Virus record (IMG/VR): IMGVR_UViG_3300027734_000034
Source of the DNA: a virus
Taxonomy: Duplodnaviria; Heunggongvirae; Uroviricota; Caudoviricetes
Strand: one strand, 5' to 3'
DNA: 60,908 nucleotides
In this document: positions 47,497 to 56,363 of the stretch, piece after piece
How positions within the stretch are numbered: the stretch's first letter is position 1
Layout of the letters: each line of letters begins with the position of its first letter
Translations under genes and position numbers: made by a program
The notes under the pieces: generated by a model
The model's input: the letters and a program-made list of their open reading frames with translations, nothing else
Database searches by the model: none
Told to the model about the DNA's origin: nothing

Positions 47497-47877
47497 ATGA
47501 TCCAAAACGAATTCTTTAACCGCCTGACTCAAAATCACCCGTTCATAACAGTGTGTTCATATGCCAACCAAGATTATGTTGGAATTGTTCAAAACCGTGA
47601 TGACATGGTTACCACTATCTATGACTATGGATCCATACTTGATAATGATGTGAAAGAGAAGTTTTTAGAACTTGGAGAAGTTTGGTGGTGGGAAAGTAAT
47701 AGATTAATCCCCATCAATTTGTTCTTAAAAAACGAATGGTCTATGTTTAGACCTTATCTCAGAACTTTCAATAACAAAAGTCTAGTAATTGTGCATGGTC
47801 CGATATGCAGCATGAACGAACTAAGTAAGCGCCGTAGTAAACGCCGTAGCATCACCCTCGTCAAAAGAATGCCCTAA
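47497..47877 (+). CDS. Hypothetical late protein
   Basis: Isolated plus-strand ORF preceded by GATAAATA (47472-47479); plausible composition. Confidence 0.65.
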   Translation: MIQNEFFNRLTQNHPFITVCSYANQDYVGIVQNRDDMVTTIYDYGSILDNDVKEKFLELGEVWWWESNRLIPINLFLKNEWSMFRPYLRTFNNKSLVIVHGPICSMNELSKRRSKRRSITLVKRMP

Positions 47878-48432
47878 TAGGTTCATGTGAACCACAACTA
47901 ATTGAGCATAAGCAATTGCATGTGCTTTTTTGAATACATATCCGTCAGTTCCCTTATCCCATACAGTTTTACTAATCTCAGACCATACTTTACCAATTAA
48001 ATGCTTCTTACCGGGACGAATAACTGCAAGAAACATAGCTAATCTTGGGATGCTATCTATGGGTTCTGGCATCTTCTCTAAGTTATAAAACTGATTATTC
48101 AGGTGAATCAGTTTCTCAACAAAACTTTTATCTTTCAGTTTACTCCAATCAGGTTCAACCATCAACTCGTTAAGATGTTGTTCATCTCTGACATTCTCAT
48201 ACACATGAACATTCAATAAGTCTAGTTTAAAATATCCACGTTTGTCTGCTATTGTATAATCAATACTTGCTATATCTAGCACTGGATCATAGGGGATAGG
48301 GGTGACATATACACCAGTGGCATGTTTACGAATAGGATTAACATTACGCATTGCCGCACTTGTATGCTTAATTAGTTCAAGCAATCTATCTCTTGAACCA
48401 AAGTCAATATCAATATCACTATCTATTCTCAT
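47821..48432 (-). CDS. dnaE: Miniature DNA polymerase III alpha-like (C-family) protein
   Basis: SDIDIDF, KHATGVYV, GYFKLDLL, LAVIRPG, YVFKKAHAIAYA: DnaE motifs in the correct order within 203 aa. Confidence 0.8.
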   Translation of the reverse strand: MRIDSDIDIDFGSRDRLLELIKHTSAAMRNVNPIRKHATGVYVTPIPYDPVLDIASIDYTIADKRGYFKLDLLNVHVYENVRDEQHLNELMVEPDWSKLKDKSFVEKLIHLNNQFYNLEKMPEPIDSIPRLAMFLAVIRPGKKHLIGKVWSEISKTVWDKGTDGYVFKKAHAIAYAQLVVVHMNLLGHSFDEGDATAFTTALT

Positions 48433-48977
48433 CTTGGTTGAATCAATCCTGCTTTAATTAATTTCATATATGCAGATTGAACAACAATAGCTTGTCGTTC
48501 AGCATCTTCTACCGCTTTGTGTGTCGTAACATGATTACCATCTTTAAGACTAACACCAGTGATATCAAATAATGTTCGGGTGTCCCTAACATTATAATAA
48601 GGCCAAGGTAGCATTTGACCAGTCTGTCTCCAAGCATGTTCTATTGCAACCACATCAAATGCTGATCCATGACTCCACGGTTTGCCATGATTTAAACAAA
48701 ATTTATACAATTGATACATTGCTTCTTTAAATGATACACGGTCTCTATCACCCATAGCTTCTTCAATAGCCTCTGGGTTTTGTTTACCCCACCATTCTAA
48801 TGTTGCTTCATTGATACTACGATTATAAATCTCTGTTTGATCCTCAATCGTAGGTCTAATCTCAATCTTGTCGATGATTCCTTGACCACGCGGATCAAAT
48901 AATACTGCACCAATTGTAAGAATCACACAATCTGGTGTTGTATCAAGTGATTCAATATCTATCATAATATCGGCCAT
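48429..48977 (-). CDS. DEDD-family 3'-5' exonuclease
   Basis: IMIDIESL, W.HG..FD, RDTRT, H.A.EDA; ATGA-coupled to mini-dnaE. Confidence 0.88.
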   Translation of the reverse strand: MADIMIDIESLDTTPDCVILTIGAVLFDPRGQGIIDKIEIRPTIEDQTEIYNRSINEATLEWWGKQNPEAIEEAMGDRDRVSFKEAMYQLYKFCLNHGKPWSHGSAFDVVAIEHAWRQTGQMLPWPYYNVRDTRTLFDITGVSLKDGNHVTTHKAVEDAERQAIVVQSAYMKLIKAGLIQPR

Positions 48978-48979
48978 AA

Positions 48980-49207
48980 CTATCCTTTTTTAGTTTTACT
49001 GTAAGCTGTTTCTACCCTTGGCATACCACATTTCGCACAATAGCATGTTGCATGGCTTACATGTCCCTTACTCCAGACTTCATCCCATATCTCCCAGTTA
49101 GTCCACTGATGCCAACCAAACCTACATTGCAGTGATTGGACCGGTTCTAGTTCCTTGAGTATTCTCCAAGTGTTTCGCTTCTCATGTTTTTCACGCTGTT
49201 CTATCAT
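48980..49207 (-). CDS. Small Cys/His (Zn-binding-like) protein
   Basis: CRFGWHQW...C.CAKCG; start 49207 from the ATGA overlap. Confidence 0.55.
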   Translation of the reverse strand: MIEQREKHEKRNTWRILKELEPVQSLQCRFGWHQWTNWEIWDEVWSKGHVSHATCYCAKCGMPRVETAYSKTKKG

Positions 49208-49479
49208 GTTTGCCACATTTCATACATTGTTATCAATCTATCATCCCATATCTCTATTGTAACACATCCTCCAGCTAAGGAGAAGTCCCAACCTTGGTGT
49301 CTTTCACCGAAATTTCTTCTCATCCATTTTACTATAACTGCTGGATCTTCTTTATGAAATAAACAATCTCTAAGATAGACTTTTTTATGTCCATCTTTGT
49401 AGTTGTTATCCCTGCATAAAGAGGTTGCGGTCTTGGGATATGTTACTGCGAATCCTTTTGTGTATGTTGTTATTGCCAT
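49204..49479 (-). CDS. Paralog array member 10 (divergent)
   Basis: IVKWMRRNFG...IEIWDDRLITMYEMW. Confidence 0.65.
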   Translation of the reverse strand: MAITTYTKGFAVTYPKTATSLCRDNNYKDGHKKVYLRDCLFHKEDPAVIVKWMRRNFGERHQGWDFSLAGGCVTIEIWDDRLITMYEMWQT

Positions 49480-49480
49480 A

Positions 49481-49711
49481 TTACCATCTCAATCTTGCTA
49501 AAATATAATCACGCTCATATCTAAATTTAATTTTAAATAACCAAACTTCATCATATACCCAAGTATACAAACAATGTCTATCTGGGTTTTGTATGTTTCT
49601 CAGTATCCAATCTACTAACTCTATCCTTTGTGGTATCGGGTCATGTTCATCAAGTTTAATAACTATTTCATGCCATCCTGGCTTGATGTTTTCCCAATCT
49701 GTATTTCTCAT
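49481..49711 (-). CDS. Paralog array member 9
   Basis: ELVDWILRNI...IKFRYERDYILARLRW. Confidence 0.7.
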   Translation of the reverse strand: MRNTDWENIKPGWHEIVIKLDEHDPIPQRIELVDWILRNIQNPDRHCLYTWVYDEVWLFKIKFRYERDYILARLRW

Positions 49712-49983
49712 TGAAACCTCAATAAGAATATCAAATACTTTTGTTCATCTACTATTTTGTAACCATCAGTAATGTTACCATTAACCATGTTCATCTTTAT
49801 ACCATACTTATTTTCAATGTAAGTTTCAAAATCATAGGCATCAAACTGTGTTTTATCTTCCATGAATTCTTTTCTAACTAATTTGAGCAGGTTCCAATAC
49901 TTCCATCTATTCTTTCTAAAATGAAGTTCAGGATCATCGTCATCATAATCTTGAAATGATTTTGTTATATTACTCACATCCAT
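49708..49983 (-). CDS. Paralog array member 8
   Basis: DFETYIENKYG...KIVDEQKYLIFLLRF. Confidence 0.65.
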   Translation of the reverse strand: MDVSNITKSFQDYDDDDPELHFRKNRWKYWNLLKLVRKEFMEDKTQFDAYDFETYIENKYGIKMNMVNGNITDGYKIVDEQKYLIFLLRFQ

Positions 49984-50180
49984 CTCAATGCAAAATAGGT
50001 GCTATATTCTTCTTTGTAGAAATTGAATATTGTATAACAATAAGCTGGTTCAGCAAATGATTCTGCTTTATGATATGCCCAATCAAAATCTACTTTATCT
50101 ACCCAACCATGTTGTTTCATCTGATGCACTATATCTATAATTTCAAGTACTGGTACGTTTGTAACAGTTATAGTTTTCAT
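49974..50180 (-). CDS. Paralog array member 7
   Basis: FNFYKEEYSTYFALRW. Confidence 0.7.
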   Translation of the reverse strand: MKTITVTNVPVLEIIDIVHQMKQHGWVDKVDFDWAYHKAESFAEPAYCYTIFNFYKEEYSTYFALRWM

Positions 50181-50422
50181 TCCCAGCGTAGTAAAAACAT
50201 AGTCAAATCTTCATCACGGGTAAGCATTATCTCGCACTGCTTAATGTTATCTACCCAACGATTACTTCCAGTTTCATCATCATAACCTGAATTGCCGTAA
50301 TTCTTTTTACACCATTTCTTGATTTCTTTGGTGTCAATATCATCTTGACCTTTCCAAGAGACTGTATGTATATTAACTTTGCTACCAAAATAGCGTTCTG
50401 TTTTGTGTGTAAATTTGCTCAT
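50177..50422 (-). CDS. Paralog array member 6
   Basis: EIKKWCKKNYG...IMLTRDEDLTMFLLRW; start 50422 from the ATGA overlap. Confidence 0.7.
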   Translation of the reverse strand: MSKFTHKTERYFGSKVNIHTVSWKGQDDIDTKEIKKWCKKNYGNSGYDDETGSNRWVDNIKQCEIMLTRDEDLTMFLLRWE

Positions 50423-50664
50423 GACCATCTCAATATAAACCATGCTGCCAATTTAGGATCTTTAACTGTGATAGTAGGAACATATCTAATAGATATGTCA
50501 CGCGGATCAAACGCTTCATGTGGTTGCGGATACATTCGCACACGCTCATAGAACCAGGCATAATTAGGGCTATCTTTAATATCAGTCATATTGCCTCTGC
50601 CCACATGTTCGTTTAACCATTCGGTACAACCTGCAGGCACCCCCTGTCTAAACTCTACTCTCAT
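50419..50664 (-). CDS. Paralog array member 5
   Basis: CTEWLNEHVG...ITVKDPKLAAWFILRW. Confidence 0.7.
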   Translation of the reverse strand: MRVEFRQGVPAGCTEWLNEHVGRGNMTDIKDSPNYAWFYERVRMYPQPHEAFDPRDISIRYVPTITVKDPKLAAWFILRWS

Positions 50665-50903
50665 GACCACACCAACGTAAAATGCGTGGCTATTTTGCCG
50701 TCATTGAAATGAAAGTCAACCTCTCCCCAGTACCACTCACGAATCCACCCTCTGTGGTAATGTTTTTCACACCAATGTGTCATATCATCTACCTTGTCAT
50801 CCCAATCATTAGTGAGCATATTTGGAGGTGCTTCAATGCTCACTGTGTATCGGTAATTGTTTTTAATATACCGTGTTGTTTTTCTACGCTGCTTACTGTT
50901 CAT
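50661..50903 (-). CDS. Paralog array member 4
   Basis: DMTHWCEKHY...FHFNDGKIATHFTLVW. Confidence 0.7.
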   Translation of the reverse strand: MNSKQRRKTTRYIKNNYRYTVSIEAPPNMLTNDWDDKVDDMTHWCEKHYHRGWIREWYWGEVDFHFNDGKIATHFTLVWS

Positions 50904-51181
50904 GACCATCTCAATATGAAAAAGGTTCTGTCTGCTGCATCACGGAACCAGTACTTACGATCACTTCCTACCCAACGACAATTAGGTATGCCCCAATGAC
51001 CGCTGCCAAATGTGTCTATCATCCAAACATTCATATCCAACCACTCTATTGCAGAGTAGTTCAATGGTTTGACCCAATAAGGATATTTAGGTTGATTGTC
51101 GGCATAACCAGTTTCAAGTCTTTTCATAGTGGTTAATTCAGATACCCATCTAGCTTCATTCATGGCGCGTTTCTTAATCAT
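50900..51181 (-). CDS. Paralog array member 3
   Basis: DMNVWMIDTFG...YWFRDAADRTFFILRW. Confidence 0.7.
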   Translation of the reverse strand: MIKKRAMNEARWVSELTTMKRLETGYADNQPKYPYWVKPLNYSAIEWLDMNVWMIDTFGSGHWGIPNCRWVGSDRKYWFRDAADRTFFILRWS

Positions 51182-51447
51182 AGCCACCTCAACAAGAACA
51201 TGGTTAGATCCTGTGGTCGTTTAAAAAACCACCTATCGTTGTAATAGCTATGTGTACCAGAACGGAAAGTATCTTCGCACCATTTAATTTGATCTTGCAT
51301 CTCACGGCTGAGAATATAAGCCGACGGGGTGCTATGAGTCAGGCGAACTTTGCGGTTACCGTAATCAATTATCAATACGGGTTCCTCTGTTGTCATGTTC
51401 CATGTTATCCCAGACCTGGGACGTTCGTACCGAATCTTGTGTGTCAT
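51178..51447 (-). CDS. Paralog array member 2
   Basis: DQIKWCEDTF...WFFKRPQDLTMFLLRW. Confidence 0.7.
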   Translation of the reverse strand: MTHKIRYERPRSGITWNMTTEEPVLIIDYGNRKVRLTHSTPSAYILSREMQDQIKWCEDTFRSGTHSYYNDRWFFKRPQDLTMFLLRWL

Positions 51448-51671
51448 AAGCAACTTAAATTAAAATGTATAGCATCACGCTCGTCATAGAAATAAAAATC
51501 CATATAATCTTCTGTGGCATGCGTGTAATATCTTTCACCGGGCAAGCCAAAGTGTTCTATCGCATAGCCACATACATCATTCCACTTATATGAAGTATCG
51601 CCTTTTACCCATGGTACGCGAACTCTAGTAGCCTGCCTCTTTGATTGTATCTTTGACTCTTTTTGTAACAT
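51444..51671 (-). CDS. Paralog array member 1 (start uncertain)
   Basis: DVCGYAIEHFG...FYFYDERDAIHFNL; the only ATG overlaps the upstream gene by 47 nt. Confidence 0.6.
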   Translation of the reverse strand: MLQKESKIQSKRQATRVRVPWVKGDTSYKWNDVCGYAIEHFGLPGERYYTHATEDYMDFYFYDERDAIHFNLSCL

Positions 51672-52326
51672 CCATATCTCGCTTAAACTTTATCGCCCAC
51701 TGTTCTGGATTTATATAATCAATAATCATTTTAACATGACCTTCATTTAATGTATCTAGAAAATGGGTACCACTGTCACTCTGATACAACAACCATGGAC
51801 TAATCTTGCCCGTTGTAATAGCATAACATAGTTTGTTTGCATTCCCATAACGCAACATATCATGTGGTTGTATGTTTGCGTCCTCAGCCAACTTGATGCA
51901 AGTCTCTACGCTACGATGTATCGCATCGAATGGATCCTCATGCCTTAGATACTCAATGAGATATTTGGTATAGACACTATCGCTACACCAATTGTCAATC
52001 TTAATCTGATTCTTTAACAACCATTCAACATATCGTGTTATGTTGATAGCATTAATGTTAAGACAATAGTTACCAAACTTAGTAAACGCAGTATAGTATG
52101 CACTACGAATGAATTCTTCATAGGTACGATGCTTGCGACTAGATGTGTTCTTTTTATAAAACTGTACCCAAGTCTGAAATCCAAACTGATTACCACGTAA
52201 ATCTTTGTCTAGCCATCTACGCTTGTTTTCACAGATGTGTTTAGCTACCGTGCTTTCTTTCAAGAATTCACGTTTGCAGAATTCACAACCATACTTGACT
52301 GGTTCAGTTACCGAGGTCTCTTTCAT
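51625..52326 (-). CDS. Hypothetical protein with N-terminal C2H2-like Zn finger
   Basis: YGCEFCKREFLKESTVAKHIC; start placed at MKETS (52326). Confidence 0.7.
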   Translation of the reverse strand: MKETSVTEPVKYGCEFCKREFLKESTVAKHICENKRRWLDKDLRGNQFGFQTWVQFYKKNTSSRKHRTYEEFIRSAYYTAFTKFGNYCLNINAINITRYVEWLLKNQIKIDNWCSDSVYTKYLIEYLRHEDPFDAIHRSVETCIKLAEDANIQPHDMLRYGNANKLCYAITTGKISPWLLYQSDSGTHFLDTLNEGHVKMIIDYINPEQWAIKFKRDMDVTKRVKDTIKEAGY

Positions 52327-52897
52327 ATTGCTTAAGTTGCTCGTCTGTGATAGTTTCATTTAGTGTCTCAATGTCTGTTATTTTCATGTTGGGGAATAGT
52401 TCTGCTAATCTAAGTTTACGCTTTTGACTATCTACAAACGCTTGACTTACCTCTGTGATATCATCTTCATGTGCTTTAGGATATATCTTCTTGTAGTATT
52501 CTCTTATATCTTTAATCTTTGCAGGCGCTTGTAGTTTACTTACTTTGGGGCTGATGTTAGGTATCCACTGATGAAATTGTTTTCCCAATGCCGGACTACT
52601 AGCACACAACATCAACCATTGTAGTTTAGGATGCTTTTGTACATTCTCATTGAATAGATATTTGTTTGCGTGATATTCTACACTCATCAAATAATATCCT
52701 TGCAAATCACCTGATGCTTTAATCGCACTCATCCATTGAATCATTGTGAATGGTACAAACTTCTTTTGTTGTTCTATTGATAACTTATCATAGAAGCCAT
52801 AGTCTTTCTTATCTAATGCAGCAAGGACCTCAAACAAGTCTAAATCTTGTTTATCAAACTTTTCATCAACCGGGATTGCTGCTTTTCTTGTTGCCAT
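52304..52897 (-). CDS. Clamp loader small subunit-like protein (T4 gp62-like)
   Basis: FVPFTMIQWMS...N...KHPKLQWL...QFH.WI resembles the gp62 pattern; replication context. Confidence 0.5.
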   Translation of the reverse strand: MATRKAAIPVDEKFDKQDLDLFEVLAALDKKDYGFYDKLSIEQQKKFVPFTMIQWMSAIKASGDLQGYYLMSVEYHANKYLFNENVQKHPKLQWLMLCASSPALGKQFHQWIPNISPKVSKLQAPAKIKDIREYYKKIYPKAHEDDITEVSQAFVDSQKRKLRLAELFPNMKITDIETLNETITDEQLKQYERDLGN

Positions 52898-53397: not shown

Positions 53398-53409
53398 AGT
53401 GTTATTATA

Positions 53410-54897
53410 TCATTTGTATGTAAGTTTTTCAACATCAAATGGATAATTAGCCTCTTTATAAAATGCTTTTCTTTGTGTAAGATGCCGTTTTGCAAACTTA
53501 CAATTACTTGTGATATCCCAAATCTGCACGAAATTTTTATCTTCTGCTTTACGGATACCACGACCAATACTTTGTATCACCCGAACAAAACTCTTACCCG
53601 GTTCAATAAGAACAAGATTAAAGATTCGGGGAATGTTAATACCAACTGCTGCTACACCATAGGTAGCGATAATGATTTTGTTAGTTGCTGTTGCAACTTC
53701 ATCATATTGTTCTTTGCGTTCATCCATACCAGTATTGCCTGATACAAACACCACATCATATTCTGTTTTAAAATTACGCAATAGTTCGGCTAATTTGTTA
53801 TGTAATTCTTTACCGGCTGCCACCCTATCAACAAGTATCAATGTATTACCACTGTTCTTAATTGTATCAACCAATTGAGTAATTTTATTTAATCGTTTAT
53901 CATCTTCAAGTAAGTATTTCAACTCACTCTGGTAGTTACTAAACTCGACACCATCTTGTAATTGAACAATGTTAACATGGCATTGTGATAATACACCTCT
54001 ATCTTGCAATTCACTAGCAGATAGTTTGTTAATAACATTACCTAGACTGATAAAGATAGCTTGACTTGCGAATTTTTCTTTAGGAATAGTACCAGTCAGT
54101 CCCCAACGAATTGGAATCGTACTCATTATTCCAGTCAACAGTTCTTTTAGTGCATCTGCTTTGGCCATGTGAACCTCGTCTACCATGACACAAACTACAC
54201 CTTCAAGGAAGTCACCAATCTCAACTTCTGCTTCACCTGCTTTTGTTTTCTTAAGCATGTTGTTAAGACTCTGCCAAGTACAGATCGTATGTGTCTTGTT
54301 GTATTCTTTTCTATCACCAAAGTATACACCAACATCTAATCCTAGATTAATGTAATCGGCTTCGGTTTGTGTTACAAGACTTTTGTTTGGAACGATAACA
54401 ATACTGCGCCCGTAACTTTCAATAGACCAGCTTAGTGCTGCTGTGATTAATGTCTTGCCAGCGCCTGTAGCAATCTCTTGTAATGATTGTGGGTTCTTTA
54501 GAAACTCATTAATGATTGATATCTGATAGTCACGCAATACTACAGGTTGTCCTGCGATTGGATGACCTTCGGGCCAATTCTTATGTTTGAATGTCTCTTC
54601 GGACACTTCAGCAAAATTGAAAGTTGTACCGTATGTTCGCAAATCCTCTAGTTCAATATCATAGTCCCTGCTATCAATAAAGGGTAGTATTTCGGGTAGT
54701 AGATTGACATAGCTACTACCAGCAAGACTAAAGAAACTTACCTTACCATTCCATCTACCTAACCGTACCGCAGGAAGATACCTTGCACCGGGCACTTCAT
54801 ACTCAAACATCTTTACCAATGCTTTTCGTTCACTTAATTCTAAGCCTTCGATTTTTACATTGACCTCATCCTTGACAATTATTTTGCATTGTTTCAT
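53410..54897 (-). CDS. uvsW: UvsW-like superfamily 2 DNA helicase
   Basis: LRDYQ, ATGAGKT, VDEVH, GLTGT, TYGVAAVGINIP, QSIGRGIR. Confidence 0.92.
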   Translation of the reverse strand: MKQCKIIVKDEVNVKIEGLELSERKALVKMFEYEVPGARYLPAVRLGRWNGKVSFFSLAGSSYVNLLPEILPFIDSRDYDIELEDLRTYGTTFNFAEVSEETFKHKNWPEGHPIAGQPVVLRDYQISIINEFLKNPQSLQEIATGAGKTLITAALSWSIESYGRSIVIVPNKSLVTQTEADYINLGLDVGVYFGDRKEYNKTHTICTWQSLNNMLKKTKAGEAEVEIGDFLEGVVCVMVDEVHMAKADALKELLTGIMSTIPIRWGLTGTIPKEKFASQAIFISLGNVINKLSASELQDRGVLSQCHVNIVQLQDGVEFSNYQSELKYLLEDDKRLNKITQLVDTIKNSGNTLILVDRVAAGKELHNKLAELLRNFKTEYDVVFVSGNTGMDERKEQYDEVATATNKIIIATYGVAAVGINIPRIFNLVLIEPGKSFVRVIQSIGRGIRKAEDKNFVQIWDITSNCKFAKRHLTQRKAFYKEANYPFDVEKLTYK

Positions 54898-54947: not shown

Positions 54948-54972
54948 AAAAAAAGGGGAACCTAAGTTCCCC
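54948..54972 (-). terminator. Intrinsic terminator closing the early cassette region
   Basis: GGGGAAC-TTAG-GTTCCCC followed by T7. Confidence 0.85.
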
Positions 54973-54995
54973 TGAAAATCAGTAAGTAAATCTAC

Positions 54996-56060: not shown

Positions 56061-56089
56061 ATTATACACTAATGCCCATTTGTTGTCAA
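56061..56089 (-). promoter_or_regulatory. Early promoter repeat (diverged spacer)
   Basis: TTGACA-ACAAATGGGCATTAGTG-TATAAT; the -35 box contains the stop of ORF 56086. Confidence 0.85.
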
Positions 56090-56334: not shown

Positions 56335-56363
56335 ATTATATACCCAAAACCATTTAATGTCAA
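56335..56363 (-). promoter_or_regulatory. Early promoter repeat (exact 29-mer)
   Basis: TTGACATTAAATGGTTTTGGGTATATAAT. Confidence 0.92.

Follow-up and report, generated by a model that had tools for sequence, protein, structure and literature searches.

Translational coupling through an ATGA overlap of stop and start codons, with the Shine-Dalgarno (SD) sequence of the second gene lying inside the first, is a textbook arrangement known for example from trpB-trpA of E. coli. In T4-type phages, the ORFan genes of the hyperplastic regions are shuffled as cassettes by way of promoter-early stem-loop (PeSL) motifs (Arbiol et al. 2010, PMC2839356; Comeau et al. 2014, PMC4122927). On the host side, the Lit protease and CapRel read short capsid motifs (PMC8829019; bioRxiv 10.64898/2026.01.04.697583). 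Here we analyze a 60,908-nucleotide stretch of Caudoviricetes DNA (hereafter the window), which corresponds to bases 30120-91027 of one 171,004-bp virus record (IMG/VR IMGVR_UViG_3300027734_000034; 38.7% G+C), and within it an array of ten small genes, m1 to m10, most of which belong to a family in which the protein typically ends in Phe-x-Leu-Arg-Trp (the LRW tail).

We propose, at slightly under even chances, that the window holds a chained cassette array of an unnamed, virus-dominated small-protein family acting as intracellular binders. The descriptive part of this statement alone (real genes, family, fold, selection, plastic slot and chaining) is held with high confidence. The binder or counter-defence role, which is drawn by analogy, is put forward tentatively and could well prove wrong.

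A sequence-only reading of the window had reported ten consecutive small open reading frames (ORFs) at 49204-51671, and all ten are present there on the minus strand of the ORF listing (Table 1). The sizes given in amino acids (aa) in Table 1 follow a first-start rule and would be a little shorter if the true start is the ATG within the ATGA overlap; neighbouring array genes all overlap or abut. The C-termini quoted in that reading, which are those of m2 to m9, are correct, as was its claim of low pairwise identity (12-21% to m1 in a ten-sequence alignment). Tails are degenerate at the two ends of the array, FNLSCL in m1 and YEMWQT in m10, and many of the 73 m1 orthologs in related loci carry an F-S-LRW ending, unlike m1 itself. 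The upstream zinc-finger-like gene and m1 overlap by 47 nt (51625-51671), the start of m1 falling within the 3' end of that gene; a comparable 53-nt overlap has been called in a relative (L003:4522-4574), which suggests that the arrangement is conserved. Plus-strand ORFs of 42-105 aa run antisense to the array between 49184 and 51593 (e.g. 50682-50999, 105 aa); they were treated as by-products because the minus-strand genes have orthologs under purifying selection.

The earlier claim that the ten ORFs form one diverged family stood for nine of them, which are linked by profile methods, while m8 is not securely linked. Direct searches with phmmer connect only m2, m3 and m6 to each other, and a leave-one-out profile of the other nine members recovers m2, m3, m4 and m6 clearly and m1, m5 and m7 marginally, and misses m8-m10. 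Relatives were gathered using the upstream zinc-finger-like gene as bait, with 80 of 430 matching IMG/VR loci taken; downstream ORFs of the related loci yielded 500 and then 607 family matches (86 loci) in 33-47 sequence clusters, nearly all ending in F-x-L-R-W. Profiles were then built from the relatives in the 86 other phage loci, minus each member's own ortholog cluster, and searched against the 899 ORFs of the genome. These leave-cluster-out profiles recover m1-m6 and m9 with expectation values (E) between 7.7e-5 and 2.8e-14; the values for m7, m10 and m8 are 0.02, 0.07 and 0.2. Cluster-versus-cluster comparison with hhalign links all members at 86-97% probability except m8 (best 14%), with m3 as the hub (95-97% to m1, m2, m4, m6 and m9). 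Against the whole family, m8 reaches 64% over the last 18 residues (columns) only; similarity among the other nine runs about 60 residues upstream of the tail and takes in the Trp helix, FG, RW and F-x-F. The alignments show the core motifs in the same order, a Trp helix ending in F/Y-G, a strand with Trp, F-x-F and then D-x-x-x-F-x-L-[RK]-[WF] at the C-terminus, with Tyr replacing the helix Trp in m1 and m8. Judged by these profiles, nine of the ten array genes can be regarded as demonstrably homologous. Profile searches found no further family copies in the 171-kb record.

Consecutive genes usually meet at the junction TTG AGR TGG NNA TGA, in which stop codon and following ATG overlap and GAGRTGG precedes that ATG by 5 nt, so that the Leu-Arg-Trp codons, spelled TTG-AGR-TGG, also form the ribosome-binding site of the next gene. 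The junction word TTGAGRTGGNNATGA has four matches in the window, all within the array, versus 0.18 expected, and ATGA endings occur in 299 of 448 unique family genes. Codon choice within the tail is strongly skewed, with the motif Leu encoded by TTG in 67% of cases versus 20% elsewhere in the same genes, and the Arg by AGG in 43% versus 8%. The Arg is retained in 81% of genes with, and 82% of genes without, a coupled downstream gene, whereas AGR spells it in 86% of the coupled genes and in 50% of the others (odds ratio 6.2, Fisher p = 3e-5). Because the residue is kept regardless of coupling while its AGR spelling depends on it, the tail is best read as a protein motif whose spelling is tuned as a ribosome-binding site; to judge from codon usage, the C-terminal motif appears to be partly shaped by this second job.

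Selection was measured as the ratio of nonsynonymous to synonymous substitution rates (dN/dS), computed pairwise by the Nei-Gojobori method within each of the ten ortholog groups and reported as gene-wide medians. All ten groups fall between 0.15 and 0.42. The C-terminal 50 aa are under tighter constraint (0.09-0.33) than the N-terminal part (0.23-0.76) in nine of ten groups, the exception being m2 (C-terminal 0.22 versus N-terminal 0.10, from 7 pairs only). The most constrained member is m6, with orthologs 62-96% identical and a dN/dS of 0.15 overall and 0.09 in its C-terminal 50 aa, and m10 combines a variable N-terminus with a highly conserved C-terminal half (0.36 overall, 0.23 in the C-terminal 50 aa). 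With flanking core genes at 0.08-0.15, this pattern indicates paralogs that are old and individually maintained, yet more relaxed than the core genes. Of the earlier description as an old, diversifying family, age and divergence were upheld; gene-wide positive selection was not found.

The slot occupied by the array is highly plastic. Among approximately 50 loci spanning the whole slot, 34 different cassette orders were observed, and related phages differ by gain, loss and reordering of whole cassettes. The first position is usually held by m1 and the last by m10, m9 moves, and m2 and m5 are rare; m1, m3, m8 and m10 are near-universal in the clade and keep stable positions. Farther afield, the slot is empty in Pseudomonas phage PA5oct, where nothing separates the two anchor genes, and is occupied by three other small genes in Sinorhizobium phage Phosso. 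A complete relative of 364 kb carries a second array, located at 200-205 kb.

In a search of 1.84 billion representatives with a family profile, 4,617 metagenomic clusters (50% identity) were found at E <= 0.001. Nearly all metagenomic clusters are 56-150 aa long with the domain at the C-terminus, and a few have two or three tandem domains. Examples with two or three LRW domains per ORF are P0133, P0137, P0147, P0253 and P0258, and in P0137 the seam (...LRWS-CEAV-M...) reads as though the stop codon of the junction had been lost. Longer forms in the full HMMER scan are such two- and three-domain proteins plus two long, probably spurious matches; a word-index search of proteins of 449-2000 aa, which did not cover the 167-449 aa range and is weak evidence, found no longer fused forms.

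The sequence-only reading had recognized no named family, and the ten genes indeed gave no significant match in Pfam, PHROG, NCBIfam or PADLOC. The family profile has no match among PDB sequences, and 72 diverse relatives searched against Pfam and PHROGs gave only the Gp23 piece of fused forms (see below) above the cut-off. The nearest family clusters in the ESM-Atlas are overwhelmingly viral (93-100% for the three from the fold search; 97-100% for the feature search), and all BFVD matches are uncharacterised proteins of uncultured phages. The family was not mentioned in the jumbo-phage comparative-genomics literature searched. It is thus known so far almost only from viruses, and the public databases hold no description of it.

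Cultured phages do, however, contain relatives. Phosso has 30 six-frame matches with copies at many sites (best E 1e-11; e.g. XYS97326.1, XYS97328.1 and XYS97330.1), and PA5oct has three (gp247, QCG76128.1; gp274; gp275; best E 9.3e-8). The three PA5oct proteins keep the Trp helix and the F-x-F...D-A...F core, with ends of LYFS..., LQFGL or LIHK rather than LRW. Their neighbours carry a virion mass-spectrometry note and they do not, which we took to mean that the family is not in virions. The Phosso and PA5oct relatives share the domain and the wider phage group with the window array, but they are dispersed or in short runs, have L-x-[WF] tails without the Arg and without the chained junction, and are all annotated as hypothetical. 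No family match was found in T4, 121Q or P-SSM2, and only weak ones in Atu_ph07 and HTVC008M.

Members are 65-95 aa long, with a variable N-terminal part and a compact core of ∼50-60 aa consisting of the Trp helix ending in Phe-Gly, two strands (RW and F-x-F) and a closing helix, D-A-x-x-F-x-L-R-W; a beta-beta-alpha-beta-beta-alpha sandwich is predicted to be completed by an N-terminal beta-hairpin in the longer members. Folds were predicted with AlphaFold2 for two members, m3 and m8. The m3 model, based on a 64-sequence family alignment, has a mean predicted local distance difference test score (pLDDT) of 88.6 and a predicted template modelling score of 0.73, and shows an ill-defined N-terminal helix followed by beta-beta-alpha-beta-beta-alpha. 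The m8 model, for which the orthologs of m8 were used (pLDDT 76), begins with two additional helices and continues as alpha-beta-beta-alpha; its BFVD matches are its own orthologs, with family members at chance-level scores only. Foldseek found nothing in the PDB for m3 at E <= 0.001 (best E 0.69), and a fold search of AFDB clusters returned unnamed small proteins only. Comparison with 48,161 chains in VIA-align gave best Z scores of 6.2 (4olp_A, a BMC shell protein) and 5.7 (1uso_B, DCoH, deviating by 2.8 A over 63 residues), followed by weaker ACT, KH, RRM and GyrA-tower domains (RRM and ACT at Z 4.6-5.4), a range, up to 6.2, that VIA-align itself rates as a common arrangement.

DCoH (pterin-4a-carbinolamine dehydratase) has the same two-layer sandwich and the same order of elements as the m3 model, but at Z 5.3-5.7, a root-mean-square deviation of 2.5-2.8 A over 63-64 residues, 3-10% identity and no PDB sequence match, membership is not claimed. 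The BMC shell protein, ACT domain and GyrA tower are likewise two-layer alpha/beta sandwiches with scores in the common-arrangement range. We are confident that the predicted m3 fold is a small alpha/beta sandwich with only generic PDB neighbours. The earlier guess of a ferredoxin/RRM-like half fold was right about an alpha/beta C-terminal end and wrong about the half fold, the model being a full sandwich with no specific PDB relative. The RRM/ferredoxin fold itself was rejected, as it requires the order beta-alpha-beta-beta-alpha-beta. Columns conserved across the family are Trp, Gly, Trp, Phe, Asp, Phe, Leu and Trp; being of the aromatic and hydrophobic core type, they look like a hydrophobic core and not like an active site. 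All ten proteins are soluble, with isoelectric points (pI) from 5.1 to 9.5.

A hint of a protein-motif-centred function is given by relatives in which the LRW domain is fused to a piece of capsid protein (Table 1). Four of the 72 diverse relatives match Pfam Gp23 (PF07068), over model positions 3-38 only, and two of these are above the cut-off (P0163, 40.7 bits; P0141, 29.1 bits). In the complete relative G001, residues 5-68 of a 135-aa protein inside an LRW array align to residues 67-135 of T4 gp23, the start of the mature capsid protein. The N-arm fusion subfamily comprises 63 clusters at 90% identity (P0271-P0333) spanning 37-94% identity, in which the linker KYKFSRAKWY and the domain are better conserved than the capsid-like piece. 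An unannotated ORF of Phosso (∼182,280-182,546) carries a capsid N-arm piece without an LRW domain. Comparison of 307 family N-terminal parts with the non-family ORFs of the genome and the fetched loci gave trivial paralog matches only, and the idea that the N-terminus of m3 is a decayed capsid N-arm found no support with the capsid N-arm profile.

Since only core-forming aromatic and hydrophobic residues are conserved, with no catalytic-looking set, the domain is probably a non-enzymatic scaffold. As intracellular binders, the proteins would use their variable surface and N-terminal part to bind different host or phage proteins in the infected cell, and the array would constitute a panel of host-takeover or counter-defence modulators made alongside the replication genes. 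Several points weigh against this proposal. The binder or counter-defence role is reached by exclusion and analogy, and the arms-race selection that one would expect of many anti-defence genes leaves no trace in the dN/dS values, which stay below 1. In all ten window genes a capsid fragment is undetectable (no E < 1 versus the capsid N-arm profile), so that the lead offered by the fusions may not apply to the array. Promoter and operon structure were derived solely from pattern scans, and m8 may be an unrelated protein sharing only the junction module. No anti-defence inhibitors appeared among the PDB and BFVD fold matches, and no search aimed at such proteins was made.

The family is of interest beyond this locus: with thousands of clusters, a virus-dominated distribution and up to ∼30 copies per genome, it represents one of the larger unannotated blocks of phage coding capacity. 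Members occur in two cultured phages with workable hosts, Phosso (Sinorhizobium meliloti) and the transcriptome-profiled PA5oct (Pseudomonas aeruginosa). Knowing the target of a single member would allow annotation of a very large metagenomic gene set, would make modular small-binder panels of large phages against host defences testable, and would explain the merger of a protein motif and a ribosome-binding site into a portable seam.

Alternatively, the genes could be selfish cassettes that propagate themselves: through the junction they have in common (LRW codons, SD and ATGA), any cassette could enter any array by recombination and be translated immediately, so that persistence would result from mobility instead of a benefit to the phage. 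Exact repetition of the junction word within the array, the 34 cassette orders in one slot and the existence of rare cassettes such as m2 and m5 are all consistent with this idea. We nevertheless consider it unlikely, given the purifying protein-level selection in all ten ortholog groups, the near-universal presence of m1, m3, m8 and m10 at stable positions, and the failure of Pfam and PHROG searches to reveal a nuclease, an integrase or any other mobility function within the array or next to it.

The genomic setting bears on a second alternative, namely that the array encodes accessory factors for the phage replisome or for DNA and nucleotide metabolism and is sited where these act. Pfam and PHROG matches of the neighbouring genes bear out the earlier placement of the array within a replication gene block: on its upstream side are a UvsW-type helicase and three conserved unknowns (phrog_11279, 11758 and 11058), and on its downstream side a 78-aa Cys/His-rich protein, an Rv2179c-like exonuclease, a 203-aa DnaE-like fragment, a primase and a DnaB-like helicase. 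The PA5oct relatives likewise have genes for ribonucleotide reductase, thymidylate synthase, a Pol III-like protein and MazG around them, and P0163 adjoins gp47/gp46-like genes. However, close relatives differ in the number and identity of their cassettes but not in their replication genes, PA5oct has no array at the slot, the second array of the complete relative is located away from it (200-205 kb), family copies occur at many sites in Phosso, and the array proteins are of mixed charge across their pI range; a replisome role therefore seems quite unlikely.

The record itself has an estimated completeness of ∼49% (CheckV-style), and because related metagenomic contigs reach 264 and 364 kb it is considered to be a fragment of a jumbo-type phage. 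Protein similarity places the phage with Rak2/121Q, PA5oct, Atu_ph07 and Phosso; at the DNA level, blastn and megablast of the array and surrounding 20 kb found no match in 50,697 phage records. The upstream anchor of the slot has tblastn matches in 93 phage records, with a C2H2-type domain annotation in one. Downstream, the exonuclease and the DnaE-like fragment are ATGA-coupled and are kept as a pair, the downstream anchor of the slot, in all relatives, and in PA5oct the polymerase fragment comes directly after the zinc-finger-like gene. The 78-aa Cys/His-rich gene does not match the family profile and is not a member; a 64-aa gene resembling it sits within the second LRW array of the complete relative (L104:3801-3995).

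According to the pattern scans, the array contains no more promoter-like sites than shuffled sequence and no minus-strand terminator-like site between its genes; with the candidate promoter at 53432-53404, this would place the array and the replication genes on one transcript. Two perfect sigma-70 consensus promoters (12/12; 56335-56363 and 56061-56089, minus strand) lie upstream of a 343-aa clamp-loader-like gene, and a strong hairpin and T-run terminator (54954-54973, minus strand) stands just before the helicase gene. These elements suggest separate transcription units within what had been called the replication operon.

Table 1. Locations of the array genes, the junction word, flanking features and relatives in other phages (E values of m1-m10 are from leave-cluster-out profiles).
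Feature	Location	Strand	Remarks
m1	51444..51671	minus	75 aa, first member; E 4.7e-8; dN/dS 0.34
m2	51178..51453	minus	91 aa, FLLRW; rare cassette, cluster n=6 incl. m2; E 6.1e-10; dN/dS 0.24
m3	50900..51187	minus	95 aa, FILRW; E 9.3e-10
m4	50661..50909	minus	82 aa, FTLVW; E 2.9e-11; dN/dS 0.42
m5	50419..50670	minus	83 aa, FILRW; rare cassette, cluster n=8 incl. m5; E 1.4e-6; hhalign 86% to m3
m6	50177..50443	minus	88 aa (81 aa from relatives' start), FLLRW; E 2.8e-14
m7	49974..50180	minus	68 aa, FALRW, short domain form; E 0.02; hhalign 91% to m1 cluster; dN/dS 0.29
m8	49708..49983	minus	91 aa, FLLRF; acidic N-terminus DYDDDDP; E 0.2; dN/dS 0.16, orthologs strongly conserved
m9	49481..49711	minus	76 aa, ARLRW followed directly by stop; E 7.7e-5; hhalign 94-95% to m1 and m3
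m10	49204..49479	minus	91 aa, last member, tail MYEMWQT; E 0.07; hhalign 90% to m6 cluster; cluster n=46 incl. m10
Example junction TTGAGATGGTCATGA	50900..50914	minus	Leu-Arg-Trp-Ser codons, TGA/ATG overlap, GAGRTGG SD-like site
Further copies of junction word	50419-50433, 51178-51192; variant 49974-49988	minus	
Upstream anchor, 244 aa, zinc-finger-like	51625..52359	minus	phrog_11058 E 3e-58; conserved in Rak2/PA5oct/Phosso-type phages
78-aa Trp- and Cys/His-rich gene	48980..49216	minus	ATGA-coupled to m10; from ORF listing; present in only some relatives
Downstream anchor, Rv2179c-like 3'-5' exonuclease	48429..48977	minus	Pfam PF16473 E 8e-33
Downstream anchor, 203-aa DnaE-like polymerase fragment	47821..48432	minus	phrog_11778 E 4.9e-55; annotated DnaE-like in Phosso
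Candidate sigma-70-type promoter, TTGAAA / 17 nt / TG-TATAAT	53404..53432	minus	pattern scan only, 11/12 matches, extended -10
Weak terminator-like hairpin after DnaE-like gene	47738..47753	minus	pattern scan only
Weaker terminator-like match inside exonuclease gene	48601-48620	minus	pattern scan only
135-aa capsid-piece fusion of G001	L104:1351-1758 (G001 ∼200.9-201.3 kb)	minus	
138-aa capsid-piece fusion, related locus L068	L068:10868-11284		in same slot as array
Phosso gp170	PV764938.1 113923-114303		C-terminal capsid segment and LRW domain
PA5oct relatives	MK797984.1 165381-165596 (gp247), 181548-181805 (gp274), 181966-182187 (gp275)		single-copy, distant

The capsid fusions give rise to a third alternative, which we regard as improbable, in which the LRW domain would be a display or docking scaffold, its N-terminal graft or its variable surface mimicking or masking short motifs read by abortive-infection sensors, and the array a panel of decoys or masks able to blind several protein-sensing defences simultaneously. 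The graft of the capsid N-arm, as the equivalent of Gol in T4, would be its clearest case, residues ∼93-122 of T4 gp23 within the aligned span 67-135 being the Gol region that triggers Lit. In this scheme, the chained junction would permit free swapping of the panel.

Very improbable is a role as small RNA- or DNA-binding regulators of RRM- or ferredoxin-like fold, an option raised in the sequence-only reading. A two-layer alpha/beta sandwich whose weak neighbours include KH, RRM, SUI1/YciH, ACT and ribosomal protein S6 is compatible with it, but the predicted order of elements is not that of RRM or ferredoxin, all PDB matches are at chance level (Foldseek E >= 0.69, Z <= 6.2), the alignment has no conserved basic or exposed aromatic patch, and half of the family is acidic. 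Finally, that the ten ORFs are unrelated small genes with 3' ends made alike by recombination or by convergence for translational coupling is highly improbable as a whole, being viable for m8 alone, which aligns over its last 18 residues only, and refuted for the other nine despite the clear tuning of tail codons as an SD, since these are alike for ∼60 residues beyond the tail (profile E to 2.8e-14, hhalign to 97%), the Arg is kept equally with or without a coupled downstream gene, and the PA5oct and Phosso relatives keep the domain without the LRW tail.

Set beside the systems introduced at the outset, the array falls under a kind already known: small accessory genes that occupy a hyperplastic slot as cassettes and are translationally coupled. 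As in PeSL cassettes, small accessory genes of unassigned function occupy a variable slot between conserved core genes, and whole genes are gained, lost or replaced among close relatives at a short repeat that also drives expression. In contrast to PeSL cassettes, the seam of the array is coding (last codons, SD and ATGA overlap) instead of an intergenic promoter and terminator, and its cassettes are paralogs from a single family, whereas PeSL cassettes are ORFans with no relation to each other. A PeSL-type array was accordingly rejected, as the genes overlap by at least four bases and no promoter- or terminator-like site occurs between them beyond chance.

The fusion subfamily of the relatives resembles the Lit and CapRel triggers in carrying a copy of the capsid N-arm before the LRW domain. 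It differs from Gol and CapRel targets in that the capsid piece is less conserved than the linker and domain, and the ten window genes lack such a piece. With textbook ATGA coupling the array shares the four-base overlap and a purine-rich, SD-like word 5 nt before the next ATG within the preceding gene. Unlike textbook coupling, the SD is built from a conserved protein motif, so that each member carries the adaptor of the next one, and it is the codon that is tuned, not the amino acid.

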